Below are positions 9,412 through 54,452 of a stretch of 64,000 bases of DNA, piece after piece. Location: NCBI GenBank assembly GCA_964610335.1, contig CAZSVP010000002.1:14376-78375 (forward strand), in the 5' to 3' direction. A program made the translations under genes and the position numbers. The notes below the pieces were generated by a model. The model saw only the letters and a program-made list of their open reading frames with translations, searched no databases and was not told where the DNA came from. The DNA is from an uncultured Candidatus Saccharibacteria bacterium (lineage in GTDB: Bacteria; Patescibacteriota; Saccharimonadia; CAILAD01; BJGX01). How positions within the stretch are numbered: position 1 is the stretch's first letter; every line of letters begins with the position of its first letter.

Positions 9412-10173
9412 TTATTTAGCAGCTTTCTTGTACTTACCCCACATCAACCCCCACTTGATCTTGATAATGTCAGGAAATGTTTGAATTGCAGCTTTGAGTG
9501 GTGAGTTGCCGAACTTGCTGCCCGTATCAATATTATGCCAATCTGGTACGTGAATAAGCTCTATGGGATATCCAAGCTGTCGTGCTATGGCAAGCACTTC
9601 CATATCAAATCCCCAGCTATCAATGGTCTGTCGTGAGAAAACCGCGCGCGCTACATCGCTCTCAAAAACTTTAAAACCACATTGAGTGTCAGGGATGCCA
9701 GGCAATATCAGCAACTGTACCACAAAGTTTCCAAAGCCAGAGATAAGCTTGCGGATTCCGCGGTGGCTTTTGTCTAAGTTACGAACACAAATACCAACTG
9801 GACGATTCTGTTGCATTAGTTGTTTTACTGAGTCCAGATACTTAAGCGGTGTTGCCAAATCAGCGTCCATAAACATTATGTAACGACCATGGCCCTGAAG
9901 CATGCCCATCTTGACTTGCTTACCCTTCATAAACTTTTTCTTTGGTCTAGGGCCCGCATCAACTACTTCAAAATGTGAGAACTTATGAGCTGACTGCTTG
10001 GCAACTTCTGCAGTATGGTCAGGACTATGTAGATCTACTATCATCACCTCTACCTCCAACGACAGAGTTTTTAAGTACTCTGATAATTTGTCCAAAGTGT
10101 CGCCAATTTGTTTGGCTTCGTTGTAGGTCGGAATAACGATTGTCAGATCGATTGATTTAGGTTTGGACGGCAT
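9412..10173 (-). CDS. GT2 polyprenol-phosphate glycosyltransferase (Ppm1/DPM1/ArnC-like)
   Basis: IVIPTYNE start of GT-A fold, DAD (DxD) motif; ATG at 10173 (track start 10191 is GTG); 17 nt overlap with upstream gene. Confidence 0.7.
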   Translation of the reverse strand: MPSKPKSIDLTIVIPTYNEAKQIGDTLDKLSEYLKTLSLEVEVMIVDLHSPDHTAEVAKQSAHKFSHFEVVDAGPRPKKKFMKGKQVKMGMLQGHGRYIMFMDADLATPLKYLDSVKQLMQQNRPVGICVRNLDKSHRGIRKLISGFGNFVVQLLILPGIPDTQCGFKVFESDVARAVFSRQTIDSWGFDMEVLAIARQLGYPIELIHVPDWHNIDTGSKFGNSPLKAAIQTFPDIIKIKWGLMWGKYKKAAK

Positions 10174-46010: not shown

Positions 46011-46041
46011 CATTTTGCTAAACCAAGCTTCTGTTTAGCAA
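46011..46041. repeat. Hairpin TTTTGCTAAAC-CAAGCTTCT-GTTTAGCAAAA (copy 1 of tRNA-upstream conserved stem-loop)
   Basis: 11 bp perfect stem; loop CAAGCTTCT; second copy at 48676-48705. Confidence 0.6.
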
Positions 46042-46119
46042 AATGAGAGGAAAATTGTTGTGGCAATTGAAGCAATCAGACTTGTCTGATTGTGAAAATT
46101 ACAGTCAACAGTTTGACGA

Positions 46120-46206
46120 GCAGGGGTAGCGAAGCGGCCAAACGCGGCAGACTGTAAATCTGCTGGCTTTATGCCTTCGGGGGTTCGAATCCCTCCCCCT
46201 GCACCA
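46120..46206 (+). tRNA. tRNA-Tyr (GTA), long variable arm, CCA encoded
   Basis: Acceptor GCAGGGG/CCCCTGC, anticodon loop CTGTAAA, 87 nt. Confidence 0.85.
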
Positions 46207-46282
46207 GCCGATGTAGCTCAGTGGCTAGAGCAACTGTTTTGTAAACAGTAGGTCGTGGGTTCGAATCCCTCCATCGGCTCCA
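46207..46282 (+). tRNA. tRNA-Thr (TGT), CCA encoded
   Basis: Acceptor GCCGATG/CATCGGC, anticodon stem ACTGT/ACAGT loop TTTGTAA; abuts tRNA-Tyr with 0 nt spacer. Confidence 0.85.
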
Positions 46283-46306
46283 TGTTATTATCAGCAGCTA
46301 AAACAC

Positions 46307-46382
46307 GCCGCCCTAGCTCAGTTGGTAGAGCGCTTCCATGGTAAGGAAGAGGTCGCGGGTTCGAATCCCACGGGTGGCTCCA
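46307..46382 (+). tRNA. tRNA-Thr (GGT), CCA encoded
   Basis: Acceptor GCCGCCC/GGGTGGC (one G-U), anticodon loop ATGGTAA. Confidence 0.85.
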
Positions 46383-46409
46383 GAAATTATAACAATAAGG
46401 CTAAAAACT

Positions 46410-46634
46410 ATGGCGACCAAGAAAAAAGATACTACTCGTAAGTCCCTATACTTGTCAGACGACAAGAAGCTGCTTGGCGTAGCTGGTGGGATTGCCGAAT
46501 ATTTTGATATCGATCCTGCAATTGTACGAATTATTGCCCTCATACTAATAGTATGCTCAGGATTCGTGCCGGGTATGATTATATACTTCATAATTGGGCT
46601 GTTTATCATGCCTGAAAAAAATGCCAAAAAGTAA
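46410..46634 (+). CDS. PspC-domain small membrane protein
   Basis: LYLSDDKKLLGVAGGIAEYFDIDPAIVRII; start moved to ATG 46410 because track ORF overlaps tRNA. Confidence 0.65.
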   Translation: MATKKKDTTRKSLYLSDDKKLLGVAGGIAEYFDIDPAIVRIIALILIVCSGFVPGMIIYFIIGLFIMPEKNAKK

Positions 46635-46842
46635 CCATAAATCCGACAAGGAACTCACCCTTGCTGCTGATGACAAAAAAGTCGCGGGTATTGCCGGAGG
46701 TATTGCTGAGTATTACAACCTCAGCCCAGTATGGGTGCGTATAGTAGGCATTGTATTTATAGTACTGTCGGGCATCATCCCCGGTCTGCTTATTTATTTC
46801 ATCATTGCTACGGCCATTCGTCGTGGCGAATCAAAAAACTAG
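46621..46842 (+). CDS. Second PspC-domain small membrane protein
   Basis: LTLAADDKKVAGIAGGIAEYYNLSPVWVRIV; tandem paralogue. Confidence 0.6.
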   Translation: MPKSNHKSDKELTLAADDKKVAGIAGGIAEYYNLSPVWVRIVGIVFIVLSGIIPGLLIYFIIATAIRRGESKN

Positions 46843-47273
46843 TTTCTAAGTGTGCCTATCTTATAATCTTGCAACATTTGGCCTGCAGTTGTGGAATGTC
46901 CACGACCACCACTGCGCCCTTGTGTATCGAACGCCTTTGTAGCTTCCTTACCACAGTACGGTATAATCTCAGCTTCACCACCGGGATGCTGACTAAGAAA
47001 CTTCGATACATCATAAACATTACCATTTACTACCAACCAGCAATTTGATGCAGTATTGTGACTCGAGACCTCAGAAATTGTAAAAACTTGAGTGGCTTGG
47101 CTTGGTTGAGTCTGGGTTGGATTGTTGGAGTTTGTATTCGATGGTGAAGGTGTTGTCACTGGCTGAGTAGGTGTAGCAGCTTCTCTTTGTTGTTTTTGTA
47201 AAAAACCCAGTACAAAGATACCGCACATTATCACTGCACAAACACCAGTGATTATCGCAAGTAGATACTTCAT
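46839..47273 (-). CDS. Membrane-anchored cytochrome b5-like heme-binding domain protein
   Basis: N-terminal TM, STP-rich linker, HPGG heme-binding motif. Confidence 0.6.
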   Translation of the reverse strand: MKYLLAIITGVCAVIMCGIFVLGFLQKQQREAATPTQPVTTPSPSNTNSNNPTQTQPSQATQVFTISEVSSHNTASNCWLVVNGNVYDVSKFLSQHPGGEAEIIPYCGKEATKAFDTQGRSGGRGHSTTAGQMLQDYKIGTLRN

Positions 47274-48550
47274 GACAAGCTAAACTCCTCGGTTATGATA
47301 TGGGTTTTGCTTACACCATCATTCACCAAACTTCTTTTAAATGCCTTCATCATGGGTGGTGGGCCACATATCCATATAGCGGTGTTGATATCATAAATCT
47401 TAGTAATGTCATGGCTAGTAAGCTGAGTTTGATGCTCTGTATCGATGAAGTGTATGTGAAAGTTTGGCTTGAGCTTGGCAATAGCTTGCAACTCTCTTAA
47501 GAAATAAGCCTGGGATTTAGAACGCACGCTATAGAACAAGTCGACTTGCTGCTTGTCCAGTGATTTGGCCATTGCCACAAATGGAGTGATGCCTATTCCA
47601 CCAGCTATCCAAATCTGTTTCTGATAGTTAGTAAGCTCACTACCAAATTCACCATATGCCCCCTCAACTATTACGTCGTCACCAACCTTCAGCTCAGTTA
47701 GGCTGTTGGTAAAGTCACCAAGCTGCTTGATGCCCACGCTTATAGTACTACCACCTGGCACAGACGTAAGACTAAAGGGGTGAAATTGCTTTTTGACTGC
47801 ACTATTGATGGGTTTGACAAAAACAAACTGCCCCGGCGTATATCCACCTATGCCGTTATTTGAACTGAGGCTCAGCTCCAGCACTTCAGCTTGCTTAGAA
47901 ATATCAGTTACTTGGTAACTATAGCGTCTGCGAAAACTACCATGAAAAAGTGAACGATATAGCATAACTATGAGCGCCAATCCCACCAGAACACTTCCAT
48001 AAATTATGAGCGGCCACGATTGCAAGACATCACTACCAGTCATATATATAGCGTGGTATGCGCCCAGGAAGAATACTAGTCCCAGTGTGATCTGCAGCTT
48101 TACAAACAGTTCGTGCTTGATTACCAAATAAGTAGTAGCAAAGATCGCCACAAACATAATACCGAGTGTTGCTTCCGCGGCTAGCTGTGGATAGTTCAGG
48201 CTCGGTTTTAGGAACTCATACGCACTAGTAAACGAAATCATGGCATAGCGAATAGCTATAAGCGTCGGGTGGATTATCAACAGCATGAATGCGATACAAC
48301 CTGTACGGTGGTGCCAACGATATAGATTGGGTAATCCTCCATAAAGCCTCTCAAACATCTCTAGCCTTGTGCTGAGTAAGATATTCCAACCAAATAGTGA
48401 GAACCCCGCCAGTGCAAAAAGCTTAACAGCGGTATTAACACTGCTGGATAGTGTATCAAGCAAGATTGGCTGGCTGACAACCCACAATAGTACTGGGAAA
48501 AGTGCCACTACTGCAGTTGTTATAGTTGCTCGAATGTTGGCTTTTTGCAT
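47270..48550 (-). CDS. Ferric-reductase/NOX-family flavocytochrome (6-TM heme domain + FAD + NAD(P)H binding)
   Basis: TM domain with His pairs, HPFS FAD motif, GGIGITPF NAD(P)-binding motif. Confidence 0.65.
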   Translation of the reverse strand: MQKANIRATITTAVVALFPVLLWVVSQPILLDTLSSSVNTAVKLFALAGFSLFGWNILLSTRLEMFERLYGGLPNLYRWHHRTGCIAFMLLIIHPTLIAIRYAMISFTSAYEFLKPSLNYPQLAAEATLGIMFVAIFATTYLVIKHELFVKLQITLGLVFFLGAYHAIYMTGSDVLQSWPLIIYGSVLVGLALIVMLYRSLFHGSFRRRYSYQVTDISKQAEVLELSLSSNNGIGGYTPGQFVFVKPINSAVKKQFHPFSLTSVPGGSTISVGIKQLGDFTNSLTELKVGDDVIVEGAYGEFGSELTNYQKQIWIAGGIGITPFVAMAKSLDKQQVDLFYSVRSKSQAYFLRELQAIAKLKPNFHIHFIDTEHQTQLTSHDITKIYDINTAIWICGPPPMMKAFKRSLVNDGVSKTHIITEEFSLS

Positions 48551-48675
48551 TGTCTTATCATAACCTCTTATATGCCCCCCTCAAGCACTTACCACAAGGC
48601 TATAAATCTACCTGGTTATTTGGTAAAATGATCGAGTTACTATTGTAACTTTCCTAGCCGTTTCAGGATAAACGC

Positions 48676-48705
48676 TTTTGTAAACCAAGTTTCTGTTTGC
48701 AAAAG
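48676..48705. repeat. Hairpin CTTTTGTAAAC-CAAGTTTCT-GTTTGCAAAAG (copy 2 of tRNA-upstream conserved stem-loop)
   Basis: Same stem/loop architecture and near-identical loop as 46011-46041. Confidence 0.6.
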
Positions 48706-48782
48706 CGAAAGGAAGAACACGATGTATGCTGACAGAGATTTCCTTGAAATCGCGAGAAGCAGAAATGCGTGTTCTGACGCAG

Positions 48783-48859
48783 AGGGGTGTAGCTCAGTTG
48801 GCTAGAGCGTCGGTCTCCAAAACCGAAGGTCGCGGGTTCGACTCCTGCCACCCCTGCCA
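48783..48859 (+). tRNA. tRNA-Trp (CCA), CCA encoded
   Basis: Acceptor AGGGGTG/CACCCCT, anticodon loop CTCCAAA. Confidence 0.85.
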
Positions 48860-48873
48860 AAGCACTTATGCTT

Positions 48874-48897
48874 AAAAGACCATTTGGTCTTTTTTTT
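48874..48897 (+). terminator. Intrinsic terminator AAAGACCA-TTT-GGTCTTT + T7
   Basis: Hairpin followed by TTTTTTT immediately 3' of tRNA-Trp. Confidence 0.7.
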
Positions 48898-48949
48898 GTT
48901 ATCATAGGGTTGTATTAAGTTAATTCAATAACCACTTTTAAGGAGCTGC

Positions 48950-49411
48950 ATGAAAAAAGATGAAGTAATGAAGCAATCAATATTGTATGGAATAATAGGA
49001 TTACTGGTAGGCATACTACTGACAGTATTTGTAGCTACGATTTCAGTAAATAACAACAATCAAACTATGATGCGGGTAATGGGTATGAAAACTAACCAAA
49101 ATAGCCCTAGTGTTATGCGTGACTCATCTATGAGCATGGATGACATGACGAATGAGCTTAAAAGCAAAACAGGAGATGAATTCGACAAAGCTTTCTTGGC
49201 TGAGATGATAGTACACCATCAAGGAGCAATAGATATGGCAAATTTGGTACTACAAAAATCTACAAAACCAGAACTCCGTAGCTTAGCAAATGACATCATT
49301 GCAGCACAAACCAAAGAGATTAACCAAATGAAGATATGGCAACAACAGTGGGGTTATCCAGTGAGCTCAAGCTCAGATGATAGTATGGGCGGCATGCATA
49401 TGATGCATTAG
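48950..49411 (+). CDS. DUF305 family protein (copper-resistance associated), secreted/membrane-anchored
   Basis: HHQGAIDMA and ...QTKEINQMKIWQ motifs, N-terminal TM. Confidence 0.65.
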   Translation: MKKDEVMKQSILYGIIGLLVGILLTVFVATISVNNNNQTMMRVMGMKTNQNSPSVMRDSSMSMDDMTNELKSKTGDEFDKAFLAEMIVHHQGAIDMANLVLQKSTKPELRSLANDIIAAQTKEINQMKIWQQQWGYPVSSSSDDSMGGMHMMH

Positions 49412-49414
49412 TGT

Positions 49415-51418
49415 ATGAATCACCAGCAGCACAACCATAGCGAAGAACAAGACTACGACAAGCACGCTGGTCACTCGGTAGCGATGTTTCGTAGTAAGTT
49501 TTGGGTTTGTCTCGTTTTAACAGTTCCCGTTCTTTTGTATTCAGACAATGTTGCACGCTGGCTTCATGTAAGCCCACCGAGTTTCCCTGGCTCAATGTAT
49601 GTACCATTTGTACTGAGCAGCGTCATATTCTTTTATGGCGGCTGGGTATTTATAAAAGGAGCTATTGGCGAACTTAAGAGTCGATTACCGGGTATGATGA
49701 CCCTCATAAGTCTGGCAATCATTACTTCGTATATATACAGTTTAGCAACGGTATTTGGGTTGCCAGGCGAAGGCTTCTTTTGGGAGTTAGCAACGCTTGT
49801 GACTATTATGCTACTTGGCCACTGGCTAGAAATGGCCTCGGTTGCCCGAGCAGAAAGTGCTATTGATGCAATTGCCAAACTTTTACCTGACAAAGCTGAA
49901 AAGCTCGTAAATGGTAAGCCTCAGGCCGTAATGGTTTCTGAGCTAAAGATTGGTGATTTGGTTTTGGTACGACCAGGTACCAATATCCCAGTTGACGGCA
50001 TTGTAACAGACGGTACATCTGCCGTAGATGAAGCAGCCTTTTCTGGCGAATCAAAGCCTGTAACTAAAGCTATTCATGATGAAATTGTGGCTGGCACAGT
50101 CAATCAAGATGGGGCTTTAACGGTCAAAGTAACTAAGCTCGGTGACGATACTGCTTTGGCTGGCATAATGCGGCTAGTCAAAGAAGCCCAAGCCTCAAAG
50201 TCTAATGTTCAAGTGTTGGCAGACAAAGCAGCTTTTTGGCTGACTATTATTGCCCTCTCAGCTAGCTTATTAACGTTTGGATATTGGCTATTTGCCAAAG
50301 ACAGCCTATTCGCCCTAGAACGAGCCGTGACGGTGCTTATAATCGCTTGTCCTCACGCTTTAGGCTTAGCAATCCCTCTTGTAGTATCAATCTCTACGGC
50401 AATCTCTGCCCGCAACGGATTACTCGTGCGAAAACGGTTAGCCCTGGAATCAGCTCGTAAACTAGACATAGTGTTGTTTGATAAAACCGGCACACTAACT
50501 AAGGGTAAGCATGGCGTGACCAATATCTTTACCACTGATGGATATACCAATGATCAAATTCTTAGTCTTACAGCAAGCCTAGAGCAACAAAGCGAGCATA
50601 TCGTTGGTCAGGGCATCGTGAACAAAGCCACCGAACAGAAACTCGAACTGTCGAAAGTGTCGTCTTTTTCGGCAATCCCGGGTATAGGTGTACAGGCAAC
50701 AATAAATAAACAGAAATACTTAGCCGTGAGTTATCGCTATATCGAAGATAATAAGATTGAATTGCCAAGTGTTCTCGGCAAGCAACTCAAACAGGCTGCC
50801 AAAGAAGGAAAAACAGAAGTTTACTTAGTAACAAATAAGAAGGTAGTCGGCGCATTAGCATTGACCGATATAATCAGGACTGAATCAAAAGAAGCTATTG
50901 CGGCCTTGCAGGCCATGAATATTCGTACCGCTATGATTACAGGCGACTCAGAAGATGTTGCAAAGTATGTGGCTAAACAACTTAAATTAGATGTGTATTT
51001 TGCGGAAGTACGGCCAGAGAATAAGGCTGATAAGGTCAAAGAGCTACAAGCACAAGGCGAGCAGGTGGCAATGGTTGGTGATGGTATCAACGATGCCCCA
51101 GCATTAACGGCAGCCACTATTGGGATTGCTATCGGAGCTGGCACTGACGTAGCTATTAAGTCAGCCGATATTATCCTTGTTAAGAGTAATCCACTTGATG
51201 TTGTAAAAGTAATACATTTATCTAAAGCGACATATAAGAAGATGAGGCAAAACTTAATTTGGGCAACTGGTTATAATGTTGTGGCTATCCCGCTGGCCGC
51301 AGGTGTGTTGTATAGCTTCGGAATCTTGTTAGCCCCAGCAATAGGTGCGGTGCTAATGTCAGTGTCTACGATTGTGGTGGCTGCCAATGCCCAACTTCTT
51401 AGAAGGACAAGACTATGA
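49415..51418 (+). CDS. Heavy-metal P1B-type ATPase, CopB-like (His-rich N-terminus, CPH motif)
   Basis: MNHQQHNHSEE...H-rich; CPHALGLA; DKTGTLT; GDGINDAPAL. Confidence 0.85.
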   Translation: MNHQQHNHSEEQDYDKHAGHSVAMFRSKFWVCLVLTVPVLLYSDNVARWLHVSPPSFPGSMYVPFVLSSVIFFYGGWVFIKGAIGELKSRLPGMMTLISLAIITSYIYSLATVFGLPGEGFFWELATLVTIMLLGHWLEMASVARAESAIDAIAKLLPDKAEKLVNGKPQAVMVSELKIGDLVLVRPGTNIPVDGIVTDGTSAVDEAAFSGESKPVTKAIHDEIVAGTVNQDGALTVKVTKLGDDTALAGIMRLVKEAQASKSNVQVLADKAAFWLTIIALSASLLTFGYWLFAKDSLFALERAVTVLIIACPHALGLAIPLVVSISTAISARNGLLVRKRLALESARKLDIVLFDKTGTLTKGKHGVTNIFTTDGYTNDQILSLTASLEQQSEHIVGQGIVNKATEQKLELSKVSSFSAIPGIGVQATINKQKYLAVSYRYIEDNKIELPSVLGKQLKQAAKEGKTEVYLVTNKKVVGALALTDIIRTESKEAIAALQAMNIRTAMITGDSEDVAKYVAKQLKLDVYFAEVRPENKADKVKELQAQGEQVAMVGDGINDAPALTAATIGIAIGAGTDVAIKSADIILVKSNPLDVVKVIHLSKATYKKMRQNLIWATGYNVVAIPLAAGVLYSFGILLAPAIGAVLMSVSTIVVAANAQLLRRTRL

Positions 51419-52038
51419 ATAAAAAAAGCAGTAAAGGTACCCCTCGGTTTGACCTGCTGGTTGCACTTTCATCAGGAATTTTTGCAGGAGCGGCAATATT
51501 TGAAATTATTCCAGAATCAGCGAAACAGTTGGGGTGGATCAATGCCTTTTTATTAACAGTTACTGGGTTTGTGATATGGTATGTGCTTAAATTAGTAACT
51601 AACAAGTTTTCAAAGAACGCTTTTGCCATATCTGCAAGTTTAGCATTTTGGTTTCATTCCCTGCTCGAAGGTGCCATAACCGCCGTAGGATTGAGTATTG
51701 GTGGAATAGTTGGTTTCGGCATAGTAACTGGTATGATACTGCACTTACTCCCTGAATTTTTTGCTGTGGTGGCAATTTTGCGTTCTGAGGGCTTTTCTTT
51801 AAAAAAGTCTGTAATGGTCGATGTAATAACCATCATTGTATTACTTGTAAGCTTTGGTATCACTTATTACTTTCTGCGACAGTTCAGCCAAACTACACTC
51901 GTTGCTCTTGAAGCCGTTAGCGCGGGGGCGTTCTTGTATATTGCCGGACATAGCCTACTAACACGAGTTCGTATGTCAACTTTGGTTGCTGCCACAGCTG
52001 GGTTGGCTATTATGTTATTAATTCGTGTGGTCGTATAA
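51415..52038 (+). CDS. ZIP-family metal permease (ZupT-like)
   Basis: 207 aa, 6-7 TM, FHSLLEGA and AGHSL metal-binding motifs; ATGA overlap with ATPase stop. Confidence 0.6.
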   Translation: MNKKSSKGTPRFDLLVALSSGIFAGAAIFEIIPESAKQLGWINAFLLTVTGFVIWYVLKLVTNKFSKNAFAISASLAFWFHSLLEGAITAVGLSIGGIVGFGIVTGMILHLLPEFFAVVAILRSEGFSLKKSVMVDVITIIVLLVSFGITYYFLRQFSQTTLVALEAVSAGAFLYIAGHSLLTRVRMSTLVAATAGLAIMLLIRVVV

Positions 52039-52058
52039 TTAAAGCAGTCCTAAGCTGG

Positions 52059-52110
52059 TTCACAACGTCCTGCCAGAGTACTTATGCTTAAAGAAGCCCA
52101 CGGGGTTTCT
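52059..52110 (+). repeat. Boundary repeat B: CCTGCCAGAGTACTTATGCTTAAA + hairpin + CTTTTTGATATAATA (tRNA-Trp-3'-end-like core; extended -10 TGATATAAT)
   Basis: Matches 48853-48876 at 22/24 positions; shares ends with copy C. Confidence 0.6.
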
Positions 52111-52152
52111 TTTTGATATAATAAGTTTATTAGAAAAATTATCACTACAACA

Positions 52153-52737
52153 ATGATTACCCTAGACGGCGTTATGCAAGCGCCCGGTGCCTCCAAAGAA
52201 GATACTGCGCAAGGGTTTGAATACGGAGGTTGGCAGACTGGCTATTGGGACGAAGATGCAGACAAAATAATAGACACAAAGGTACAGGCTGCACCTTTTG
52301 ACCTGCTCTTAGGAAGACTCACGTATGAAATCTTTGCGGCTTACTGGCCTAATTACACAGATGAACAGCGTTGGGGCAAGCCATTCAATAGCGCGAAAAA
52401 GTATGTTGTCTCACCCAAGCCCTTCAAACTCTCTTGGAATAATTCTGAACTTATTACGGGTGATGTGCTGGCAGAAATAAAAAAGCTTAAAAAATCAGAC
52501 GGTCCTGACCTATTAGTGTACGGTAGTGGCAACCTTATACAAACGCTTCTTAGTAACAACCTAATAGACAGAATGCACATCTGGACATTTCCTGTTACTA
52601 TTGGTACCGGCAAAAGATTATTCGCAGAAGGCACACAGCCAGAGCGCTTTAACCCGGTAGACTCCAAAATTACCAAGACAGGCATAATATTTGCCACCTA
52701 CGAGCCAAAGGGACCGCTCAAAAAAACCCAGAGCTAG
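52153..52737 (+). CDS. Dihydrofolate reductase family protein (RibD C-terminal domain, YwjB-like)
   Basis: 194 aa; LLLGRLTYE...LLVYGSGNL DHFR-like fold motifs. Confidence 0.6.
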   Translation: MITLDGVMQAPGASKEDTAQGFEYGGWQTGYWDEDADKIIDTKVQAAPFDLLLGRLTYEIFAAYWPNYTDEQRWGKPFNSAKKYVVSPKPFKLSWNNSELITGDVLAEIKKLKKSDGPDLLVYGSGNLIQTLLSNNLIDRMHIWTFPVTIGTGKRLFAEGTQPERFNPVDSKITKTGIIFATYEPKGPLKKTQS

Positions 52738-52779
52738 ACTCGATTATCATTAATAAAGTACTAATCTCGCTTACTACGC

Positions 52780-52831
52780 CCTGCCAAAGTACTAATTGGT
52801 GCCAAGACAATCGAACAGCTTTTTGATATGA
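52780..52831 (+). repeat. Boundary repeat C: CCTGCCAAAGTACT...CTTTTTGATATGATA
   Basis: Shares 14 nt 5' core and 15 nt 3' end with repeat B; middle differs. Confidence 0.55.
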
Positions 52832-52838
52832 TAGTCAC

Positions 52839-54452
52839 ATGAATCGAGCAGAAAAAACTGTTTTAATACTGCTGTGTATGGCGCAGCTTATACTTACCCT
52901 AGACTCTACGGTCATGAATGTATCAATCAGTACACTGGTAGTAGACCTCAACACAACAGTCTCGGCAGTCCAAAGCGCCATAGCCTTCTACACCCTAGTA
53001 ATGGCCGCATTTATGATCGCGGGTGCCAAGATCGGCGATGTGATTGGTCGCAAAAAAGCCTTCATAATCGGACTTATCATATACGGCACCGGTTCACTCA
53101 TCACATCGCTAGCACCCAACATCAATGTACTCAAATTCGGCTGGTCACTTCTAGAAGGCTTAGGCGCAGCCTTGATAGTACCAGCGATGATATCACTAAT
53201 AGCGAGCAACTTTGGAGCTGGACCAAGGCGCGTGCGAGCTTATGGAATGTTGGCCGCTATGGCAGCGATTGGAGCGGCAATTGGACCGATCGTAGGTGGT
53301 CTTCTGACCACCTATGCTAGCTGGCGACTGGTATTTGCCGGCGAGGTGCTAATAGTTCTATATATACTGTTCAATCACACCAAGATAAAAGACGCACCCG
53401 CCACTGCCAATCCACCTCGTCTCGATTGGCTCGGTGTAGGGCTAACTGCTGCTGGTATGTTTACAATTGTACAGGGCATACTACTAGCTAGTACTTATGG
53501 ATTCTTCCGTGCCCGCCAAGCTTTTGAAATCAATGGCAATGTAGTGATTGAGCCTGGTCAGGTATCTCCTACTGTGTACTTTGTGATTGGTGGTGTAGTG
53601 ATACTGGCACTATTTGTGCTGTGGGAGCTTTGGCGGACCAAGAAAAACAAGGACGTCTTGGTGCATCTGCGATTGTTTGCCAACTCTGTTGTGCAATCGG
53701 GTTTAGGTACTATCCTAACACTATACTTCCTGCTTGGTGGTACTATGTATACCCTGGCACTATTTACACAGATTCAACTAGGATACAACGCTCTCCTATC
53801 TGGACTTACCATGCTGCCGCTTTCGGTAATGATATTGCTACTAGCTAGTCGTGGACCAGCCATGGCAGAAAAGTTTGCTCCACGCTACATAGTCCGTGCC
53901 GGATTCCTAGCAATATTTGTGGGTGTAATACTGGTAGGATTGACGTCGTCTAGTGCAACTTCTGGCTGGAAGTTAGTTCCTGGAATTGCCTTTGTAGGTA
54001 TGGGTGTAGGTATTATCATGTCGCAGTTGCAAAACTTGGTACAAAGCTCAGTAGAGTTGAAAGACTCATCGGAGACATCTGGCCTTATGGCTACGTTCCA
54101 AAACCTCGGAATGAGCTTGGGGACAGCTATCGGTGGTGTATTACTAATTATCTCACTACTCAATGTAAGCAGTCAGCTAATCGCTCAAAACACTACTCTC
54201 AGTGATAGTCAAAAAGCTCAGCTCAACACCGCTTACGAACAAAACGCTCAAATCGCCAGCAATGCTCAAGTTGAGGCGGCCACAGCCAGCTTGCCACCTG
54301 ACGTTTCCGCACAAGTGGTAGATATCAACGCTCAAGCACGTAGTGCCGCCCTAAGTAGGGTGTTTATACTGCTTGGAGTTATGAGCCTACTTGGTCTGGT
54401 AGCTACTATCAAGCTGCCACAAAACAAACCTGGTCCAAAAGCGCTCGGCTAG
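52839..54452 (+). CDS. MFS transporter, DHA2 (EmrB/QacA) 14-TMS drug:H+ antiporter family
   Basis: 537 aa, 14 predicted TM, MFS motif A region GDVIGRKKAF. Confidence 0.75.
   Translation: MNRAEKTVLILLCMAQLILTLDSTVMNVSISTLVVDLNTTVSAVQSAIAFYTLVMAAFMIAGAKIGDVIGRKKAFIIGLIIYGTGSLITSLAPNINVLKFGWSLLEGLGAALIVPAMISLIASNFGAGPRRVRAYGMLAAMAAIGAAIGPIVGGLLTTYASWRLVFAGEVLIVLYILFNHTKIKDAPATANPPRLDWLGVGLTAAGMFTIVQGILLASTYGFFRARQAFEINGNVVIEPGQVSPTVYFVIGGVVILALFVLWELWRTKKNKDVLVHLRLFANSVVQSGLGTILTLYFLLGGTMYTLALFTQIQLGYNALLSGLTMLPLSVMILLLASRGPAMAEKFAPRYIVRAGFLAIFVGVILVGLTSSSATSGWKLVPGIAFVGMGVGIIMSQLQNLVQSSVELKDSSETSGLMATFQNLGMSLGTAIGGVLLIISLLNVSSQLIAQNTTLSDSQKAQLNTAYEQNAQIASNAQVEAATASLPPDVSAQVVDINAQARSAALSRVFILLGVMSLLGLVATIKLPQNKPGPKALG

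Follow-up and report, generated by a model that had tools for sequence, protein, structure and literature searches.

Within a 64,000-nt stretch of an uncultured Candidatus Saccharibacteria genome (assembly GCA_964610335.1, contig CAZSVP010000002.1; hereafter the window), three related repeats, A, B and C, lie at and beyond the 3' end of the tRNA-Trp gene and delimit a copper-homeostasis module and a small module with a dihydrofolate-reductase-family gene. We propose that these repeats probably record the activity of integrative elements encoding a large serine recombinase (LSR): the end of tRNA-Trp would supply their bacterial attachment site (attB), with A as attB and B and C as the right-junction (attR-type) scars of modules that have no recombinase of their own. 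The evidence consists of the repeats, a polymorphism within the species, variable cargo at the same site in relatives, LSR elements docked at the same core, and a resemblance of the module ends to one arm (P) of the attachment site (attP) of those elements.

Repeats at the tRNA-Trp end and their variation

The tRNA-Trp gene (48783-48859, forward strand; anticodon CCA; detected by ARAGORN and scoring 70.8 bits with the Rfam tRNA model) encodes its 3' CCA, and a comparison of junctions showed that its last 8 nt, CCCTGCCA, form the core common to all of them. Repeat A, CCTGCCAAAGCACTTATGCTTAAA (48853-48876, forward strand), comprises the core CCTGCCA and a 17-nt trailer, AAGCACTTATGCTTAAA, the putative B' arm. 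Repeat B, CCTGCCAGAGTACTTATGCTTAAA (52069-52092), is part of the attR-type site B (52043-52092, forward strand), in which a P-arm-like segment, AGCAGTCCTAAGCTGGTTCACAACGT, precedes the core (52069-52075) and the B' arm GAGTACTTATGCTTAAA. This site is mildly decayed, with a T at position -8 and a G at position +1, and scores 35.8 bits with a position weight matrix (PWM) of cassette sites for which it was itself a training site. Site C (52754-52793, forward strand), also of attR type and also a training site, scores 39.7 bits and combines the P-arm-like segment TAAAGTACTAATCTCGCTTACTACGC, the core (52780-52786) and a cut-down B' arm, AAGTACT; its core and B' arm make up repeat C, CCTGCCAAAGTACT (52780-52793). 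The initial annotation had given A and C at these positions and had quoted the sequence of B and the flanks ACGTCCTGCCA and ACGCCCTGCCA exactly, but had set B 10 nt too low, at 52059-52082.

The repeats are rare. A search of both strands of the 64 kb for the 24-mer, allowing 3 mismatches, gave just 2 matches, where 100 shuffles led us to expect 0; for the 14-mer, allowing 1 mismatch, the 3 repeats were the sole matches (0.10 expected from shuffles). Scanning the window with the cassette-site PWM yielded no site besides those known. The G+C content is flat over the region (0.40-0.46), and hence there is no compositional island signal. The duplication of the tRNA 3' end at B and C that had been noted initially does exist, but extends over the last 7-9 nt only (CCTGCCA to CCCCTGCCA), and Rfam reports no partial tRNA at either site at E <= 1. 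Repeat A had been taken for an island border. The better reading is an attB, intact or regenerated, with the 3' part of tRNA-Trp as its predicted left (B) arm and the trailer as its right (B') arm; what A and B share beyond the CCA would then be this right arm. In a relative (L045), the LSR element described below is followed at its right end by the same trailer, with 16/17 nt identical. By composition B and C appear to be junctions of a P arm with the trailer, and the window has no left junction (attL).

The window is 100% identical to Logan contigs of SRR14932608/9, and the same species occurs in many samples. Several of its contigs (L026, L027, L029, L032 and L034-L038) carry an extra 295-bp module with one 83-aa open reading frame (ORF), for which there was no Pfam match. 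This module occupies precisely the junction of the tRNA CCA end with repeat A and is bounded by CCCCTGCCAAAGYACTTATG; it is flanked by tRNA-...CCCCTGCCAAAGTACTTATG and ...CTAACCCCTGCCAAAGCACTTATGCTTAAAAG (the latter being A), its left junction reading ...ACCCCTGCCAAAGTACTTATGTTTATGAAT and its right one ...CGCTCACTAACCCCTGCCAAAGCACTTATGCTTAAAAG. L026 and L034 have four sites. In the window and in L031 the tRNA is joined directly to A and the 295-bp module is precisely missing, the flanks of strains with and without it being 99.6-99.96% identical. Contigs L001, L043 and L048 end inside or exactly at the end of tRNA-Trp, and such assembly breaks are compatible with the coexistence, in those samples, of strains that differ downstream of the tRNA.

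Searches with parts of the tRNA recovered related loci, the 3' 32-mer being present in one GTDB species genome, a Candidatus Saccharimonadia metagenome-assembled genome (L002), and a 25-mer in 20 metagenome contigs. Among relatives, cargo at the site differs. In L016 the tRNA is followed by a 229-aa orphan ORF (tRNA-CCA|AAGGAATTATTTATG on the left, ...TTGCCCCTGCCAAAGTACTTATGCTTAAAT on the right, the right end carrying GCCCCTGCCAAAGTACTTATGCTTAAAT), and in L002 by a 323-aa orphan ORF, then ...AAGCCCTGCCAAGCATAAC, with AAGCCCTGCCAAG at the right end. A sister species (L040/L041), with nucleotide identities to the window of 80% for the ATPase gene and 87% for the RibD_C gene, has RibD_C followed by the full motif, ...ACTTACTACGCCCTGCCAAAGCACTTATGCTTATAT, and then by a gene different from that in the window. 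In L044, from the same samples as L040/L041, other cargo, a zinc-ribbon protein gene, adjoins the tRNA, and compared with the syntenic L009, L014 has an extra 4.45 kb here, with methyltransferase, glycosyltransferase and sulfotransferase genes. The ORFs of first units begin 6-13 nt after the tRNA, making read-through from the tRNA promoter conceivable. We found the motif only in arrays linked to tRNA-Trp, and its sites persist in the sister species, which speaks against a generic signal of many intergenic sites and against relatives having the same genes but no repeats. The module polymorphism at the tRNA/A junction, the different cargo with the same core and the LSR elements located there thus speak for the initial suggestion of site-specific integration at the tRNA 3' end, and the comparative data also support its tandem, array-like character.

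On its 5' side the tRNA-Trp gene has a second polymorphism, an insert of 120-130 nt at tRNA position 21/22. It leaves behind a displaced 5' fragment, AGGGGTGTAGCTCAGTTGGCT, after which come a conserved GTCGAGCRYCAGYGAGC...AGTCGGnnCCGACGCTCRA segment, A/T-rich DNA and the complete tRNA, with a 21-nt direct repeat. The insert is present in three diverged genomes, L034 (9412-9538), L016 (about 372-494) and L045 (about 9713-9840, minus strand), is missing in the window (at 48783) and in L014, and has no Rfam match. It may be a mini-element, or a scar left by some other integration system.

Large serine recombinases at the same core

Homologues of the ferric-reductase gene upstream of the tRNA led us to L045 (GCA_029778565.1), in which the gene for a 570-aa LSR abuts the tRNA-Trp CCA end, convergent with the tRNA. 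LSR homologues with 52-53% identity occupy the same position relative to tRNA-Trp in L049 and L050, and in all these loci the convergent LSR gene overlaps the tRNA 3' end with junctions of the form CCCCTGCCA|TT.... A further homologue, with 59% identity, is encoded by L051. All four proteins have the Resolvase, Recombinase and zinc-ribbon domains (Pfam Resolvase, Recombinase and Zn_ribbon_recom, above cut-offs at the three docked loci), and R-K-S-T-E, the catalytic motif, does not vary among them. At a distance of 7047 nt downstream, the L045 element terminates in ...TTCTATAGTGCCCTGCCA|AAGTACTAAAGTACTTATGCTTAAAT, that is, at the trailer motif of the window with an 8-nt duplication; its right junction is GTGCCCTGCCA|AAGTACTAAAGTACTTATGCTTAAAT, the element closing with ...GCCCTGCCA, followed by AAGTACT..TATGCTTAAA, and its reconstructed attP is TAATTGCGTTTCTAACTTCTTCTATAGTGCCCTGCCATTGTGAAATTACAGCCGAAATAGCGGC. 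In L051 the attP is uninterrupted, ...TTATTAACCCCTGCCA|TTCCGAAATTACTGCC (also given as ...TTATTAACCCCTGCCA|TTCCGAAATTAC...), and a cargo ORF ends just before it. The core CCCTGCCA is common to the junctions of tRNA and P' arm in L045, L049 and L050, to the attR of L045, to the attP of L051 and to sites B and C of the window.

The LSR ORFs run across their own attachment core (L045, 7989-9701; L049, 3122-4810; L050, 9323-10990; L051, 2226-3836), and the antisense strand of the core encodes a conserved W-Q-G near the LSR C-terminus, with the consequence that integration alters the tail of the protein. The last 10-30 residues would thus differ between the free form, encoded across attP, and the integrated form, encoded by the antisense strand of the tRNA, a difference which may matter for directionality or expression; such a change of a recombinase's coding sequence upon integration deserves interest for the control of directionality, too. 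The LSR elements carry tRNA genes of their own, tRNA-Ile(TAT) in L045 (5948-6023) and tRNA-Ser(TGA) in L051 (1084-1158).

That the window contains no integrase, as initially annotated, agrees with our finding no recombinase of any kind within about 20 kb on either side of the site (the ORFs at 1-28 kb being partly scanned with Pfam), and the window accordingly holds an attachment site and cargo rather than an element. The accompanying idea that the recombinase might lie elsewhere fits the recombinase-bearing elements at the same site in relatives, except that these encode LSRs and not classical tyrosine integrases.

The module ends provide a further connection to the LSR elements. At five right ends (B, C, the 83-aa module, L016 and L002) the stretch of 25-30 nt preceding CCTGCCA follows a common pattern, approximately AGTTCTAAnnTCGnTnACTAnnC. 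When these five cassette right ends were made into a PWM with the core excluded, the P arm of the L051 attP scored 13.6 bits and that of the L045 attR 7.5 bits, the fractions of window positions that score as high being 1.6e-5 and 5e-4, respectively; the tRNA itself scored -18.7 bits. Scanning 411 kb of related loci with a PWM that included the core brought out two more sites, in L045 a decayed one behind the DUF2199 gene and in L050 a candidate attR 10.9 kb from the tRNA, both above every shuffle. Module right ends may hence correspond to the P arms of LSR-element attP sites; given the few independent sites available, this support is moderate.

Proposed mechanism and its alternatives

According to the mechanism we favor, attB (B|B') would consist of the last nucleotides of tRNA-Trp, with the core CCCTGCCA, and the 17-nt trailer AAGYACTTATGCTTAAA, and would serve a family of LSR-encoding integrative elements. 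An element would integrate between the CCA end and the trailer, yielding an attL, in which the tRNA is joined to P' and the LSR gene reads into the tRNA, and an attR, in which the P arm is joined to the trailer. The window, devoid of an element, would display the leftovers of earlier rounds: B and C would close two recombinase-less modules, one for copper homeostasis and one with RibD_C, which were left by LSR elements or can be mobilized with them and which accumulate on the distal side, bounded by attR-type sites. An LSR element that has picked up neighboring modules would integrate and then exit via the nearest attR, which restores attB and leaves the cargo behind, while exit via a more distal attR would remove modules. 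Such a choice between nearest and distal attR would account for the recombinase-less modules, for the attB-like A next to the tRNA, for the trailer at the left ends of modules and for the 83-aa module polymorphism. Three elements of this scheme we infer: the origin of B and C from this particular LSR family, the continued usability of A as an attB, and the drop-off or cis-mobilization route of the modules.

Several points weigh against this mechanism. By tblastn the window has no LSR gene or fragment, the only matches being artefacts of the antisense tRNA, and none is present in the readable contigs of its species, for which look-ups of exact proteins recovered just short contigs or this same locus. 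LSR reactions need only a 2-nt identical crossover, and hence direct repeats of 20-24 nt are not demanded by the chemistry; such long identity could also allow deletion between repeats independently of any recombinase. The presence of the 83-aa module in L034, a strain with 94-97% identity, indicates that its absence from the window is probably a precise secondary loss, the kind of event least diagnostic of a recombinase, and this loss, the only event that can be polarized, could also arise by slippage between the 20-nt repeats. The site orthologous to B in L040 is more decayed than B; being common to the sister species and decaying there, B would be old and possibly inactive. For the 4.45-kb island of L014 a clean right border was not found, only a doubtful decayed match, and the small number of independent sites behind the P-arm resemblance has been mentioned. 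Lastly, a 5-bp register shift between attP and attB, an outward displacement of a GGTTC-like motif in keeping with LSR half-site geometry, received no support from a shifted-PWM test.

In one alternative no dedicated recombinase is involved: the conserved tRNA with its trailer would supply the homology at which natural transformation or homology-facilitated illegitimate recombination takes hold, the repeats being gained and lost by slippage. The tRNA is indeed identical across diverged genomes, the sole polarizable event is a precise loss between 20-nt repeats that slippage could bring about, and the contig breaks at the tRNA suggest population heterogeneity. We nevertheless consider this explanation unlikely, because it leaves unexplained why every module, with unrelated cargo and in different genomes, ends in about 30 nt of P-arm-like sequence plus CCCTGCCA, and why LSR elements that sit at this very nucleotide have an attP matching these ends.

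A classical tRNA island of a tyrosine integrase (a phage, an integrative and conjugative element (ICE) or a tycheposon-like element), with the integrase and most of the element later deleted and the repeats representing the identity segment of attL and attR, seems improbable to us as well. No tyrosine recombinase was seen near the site in the window or, among the Pfam-annotated gene calls, at about 15 tRNA-Trp loci of the clade (the ORFs of L002, L009, L014 and L016 being partly scanned), and the sole recombinases at the site, in 3/3 integrated cases, are LSRs. Direct repeats of 12-24 nt including the tRNA 3' end are the usual footprint of such integrases, tycheposons are known for tandem insertions that push older elements inwards, and the cassette junction of P arm, core and trailer resembles attB on both sides of the core, which is typical of tyrosine systems; on the other hand, the duplicated part of the tRNA is confined to the 7-9 nt noted above, Rfam reports no partial tRNA at B or C, and 295-bp modules in several genomes are hard to derive by independent decay.

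Very improbable, finally, is selection of the repeats in place as RNA or transcription signals (a tRNA mimic for RNase processing, or a terminator/promoter module) rather than their origin as recombination scars: AAGCAcuuaUGCUU can form a 5-bp hairpin that the two substitutions of B preserve through G-U pairs, A is directly followed by a terminator-like hairpin with a T run (48874-48893, forward strand) and B and C by a common extended -10-like module, but the six sites folded as RNA gave z-scores of -0.83 to +0.51 with no common structure, Rfam has no match, the motif is missing from all other intergenic regions of the window, and both the presence/absence polymorphism and the LSR association would go unexplained.

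Two other candidates were tried and rejected. As regards a phage attP for the motif, scanning viral contigs with the 21-mer motif gave no match, and the LSR alignment gave no relatives; a scan of the viral contigs with the tRNA 25-mer found only a 107-kb phage carrying its own tRNA-Trp. This phage (L022/L042; IMGVR_UViG_3300017991_000064, 106,874 bp) has a tRNA-Trp whose last 25 nt are identical to those of the Saccharimonadia tRNA-Trp. A dif/Xer-like site was considered for TTATGCTTAAA, which resembles the XerD arm, and was rejected because the left and right arms do not form an inverted repeat and the crossover, judged by the junctions, falls in CCCTGCCA.

Taking the LSR mechanism further, we regard it as possible, if rather doubtful, that the locus is an active gene-capture platform of Saccharimonadia, in which an LSR carries modules without a recombinase, often of one gene only, into an attB that regenerates itself at the tRNA-Trp CCA end. 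The LSR gene would span its own attP, and the first module would owe its expression to transcription reading through from the tRNA promoter. If true, this would represent an integron-like or staphylococcal cassette-like function assembled from different parts in ultra-small episymbiotic bacteria, and a mechanism for strain-level gene flux in the phylum.

Cargo, neighboring features and relation to known systems

The gene content initially assigned (DUF305, copper P-type ATPase, ZIP, dihydrofolate-reductase family) is confirmed by Pfam and NCBIfam. The first, recombinase-less cargo module (48860-52075, forward strand; 3.2 kb) contains a DUF305 gene (48950-49411), CopM-like but under the curated cut-off, a copper P-type ATPase gene (49415-51418; TIGR01511, 584 bits against a cut-off of 397) and a ZIP permease gene (51415-52038), which overlaps the ATPase stop codon by 4 nt. 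ZIP is cleanly missing in the sister species L040, with both flanks conserved, and its presence or absence is an ordinary gene indel within the module, with no att-like sites at its borders. The second module (52076-52786, forward strand; 0.71 kb) contains the RibD_C (dihydrofolate-reductase-family) gene (52153-52737; Pfam RibD_C, 60.9 bits). This gene is 75-93% identical across phyla and thus widely exchanged; a homologue in another Saccharimonadales genome (L039), in unrelated context and lacking the motif, was uninformative on the site. Beyond site C the first gene encodes a DHA2-like MFS transporter (52839-54452, forward strand), which is either the original neighbor or the oldest module; the PWM scan found no site behind it. 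The extended -10 module initially ascribed to the B and C repeats is real, but is a separate promoter-like element: CTTTTTGATATAATA, with a TG-extended -10, lies upstream of the RibD_C gene (52109-52123, forward strand) and a second copy, CTTTTTGATATGATA, upstream of the MFS gene (52819-52833, forward strand), and the consensus CTTTTTGATAT[A/G]ATA with up to 2 mismatches has 3 matches in the window against 0.37 expected.

Two side observations concern the surroundings. In the synteny of about 46100-54450 with L045/L048, the block from the tRNA-Tyr/Thr cluster to tRNA-Trp and the array is inverted relative to its flanks, the ribosomal-protein/TPR block following the array in the window and preceding the tRNA-Tyr cluster in L045. 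A 39-nt motif with a 10-bp inverted repeat occurs at 46014-46052 and 48676-48714, about 70-100 nt upstream of both tRNA transcription units; its arms, TTTGCTAAAC...GTTTAGCAAA versus TTTTGTAAAC...GTTTGCAAAA, have compensating differences, and it may be an operator or a leader hairpin.

Bacteria of the candidate phyla radiation have tiny genomes; to our knowledge, their exchange of accessory genes is largely unknown, and mobile elements have barely been described in the phylum. The locus singles out a concrete site, the tRNA-Trp CCA end with its 17-nt trailer, together with a candidate family of enzymes by which single genes could be gained and lost; copper-homeostasis genes are part of the cargo. 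If the recombinase and its att sites work as proposed, they would explain the strain heterogeneity that breaks assemblies at the tRNA, and would offer a natural landing pad and integrase for Saccharibacteria genetics. For Saccharibacteria and Patescibacteria, full-text literature searches gave no account of cassette arrays or serine-recombinase elements at tRNA-Trp.

The closest described parallel, by analogy and not membership, is found in the composite islands of the staphylococcal cassette chromosome (SCC, SCCmec) with their ccr-less modules, such as ACME (a mobile element for arginine catabolism), psiSCC and the ars module. In SCC the LSRs CcrAB or CcrC insert at the 3' end of a conserved housekeeping gene, the insertions are flanked by direct repeats of about 18 nt containing the integration site, and composites have tandem modules, some recombinase-less and some with metal resistance, with variant repeats between them (PMC8772726, PMC7029136). 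Like these, the window has recombinase-less tandem modules flanked by integration-site repeats at A, B and C, and the best NCBIfam matches of the L045 LSR are CcrC, CcrB, XisF and CcrA, all far below cut-offs (56-74 bits against Ccr model cut-offs of 700-900). The differences are that the target is the tRNA-Trp CCA end rather than rlmH/orfX, the host is a candidate-phyla-radiation bacterium, the modules are far smaller (0.3-3.2 kb), the LSR is no more than a distant relative of Ccr (74 bits against a cut-off of 900) and its gene spans attP, and the window has no recombinase. In Streptococcus thermophilus, ICESt1/ICESt3 and the related cis-mobilizable elements (CIMEs) reportedly form tandems at the 3' end of a conserved gene, in which recombinase-less, att-flanked elements are excised alone or together with the integrative element. 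The arrangement of such units beside an integrative element recalls the present case, but those systems are said to have tyrosine integrases, conjugative elements and modules of tens of kb.

Tycheposons of Prochlorococcus likewise integrate repeatedly at tRNA genes in a streamlined genome, newcomers pushing older elements inward and leaving partial tRNAs and remnants, with metal and nutrient genes in the cargo (10.1101/2020.12.28.424599). Repeated integration at a tRNA, inward displacement of older units and metal cargo are points of likeness, whereas tycheposons have tyrosine recombinases and partial tRNAs of about 40 nt in place of an LSR, 7-9 nt and units of single-gene size. The locus shares with integrons an array of small units of uniform orientation, without a recombinase and mostly of one gene each, in which the primary site is adjoined by the polymorphic unit; in contrast, we found no IntI tyrosine recombinase here, the six unit ends have no significant or shared fold and are not attC hairpins, and the larger units come with terminator and promoter-like signals of their own. 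Accretion of att sites at a conserved gene is thus a known phenomenon, and it is the pairing of enzyme and target, the size of the modules and the host clade that are new.

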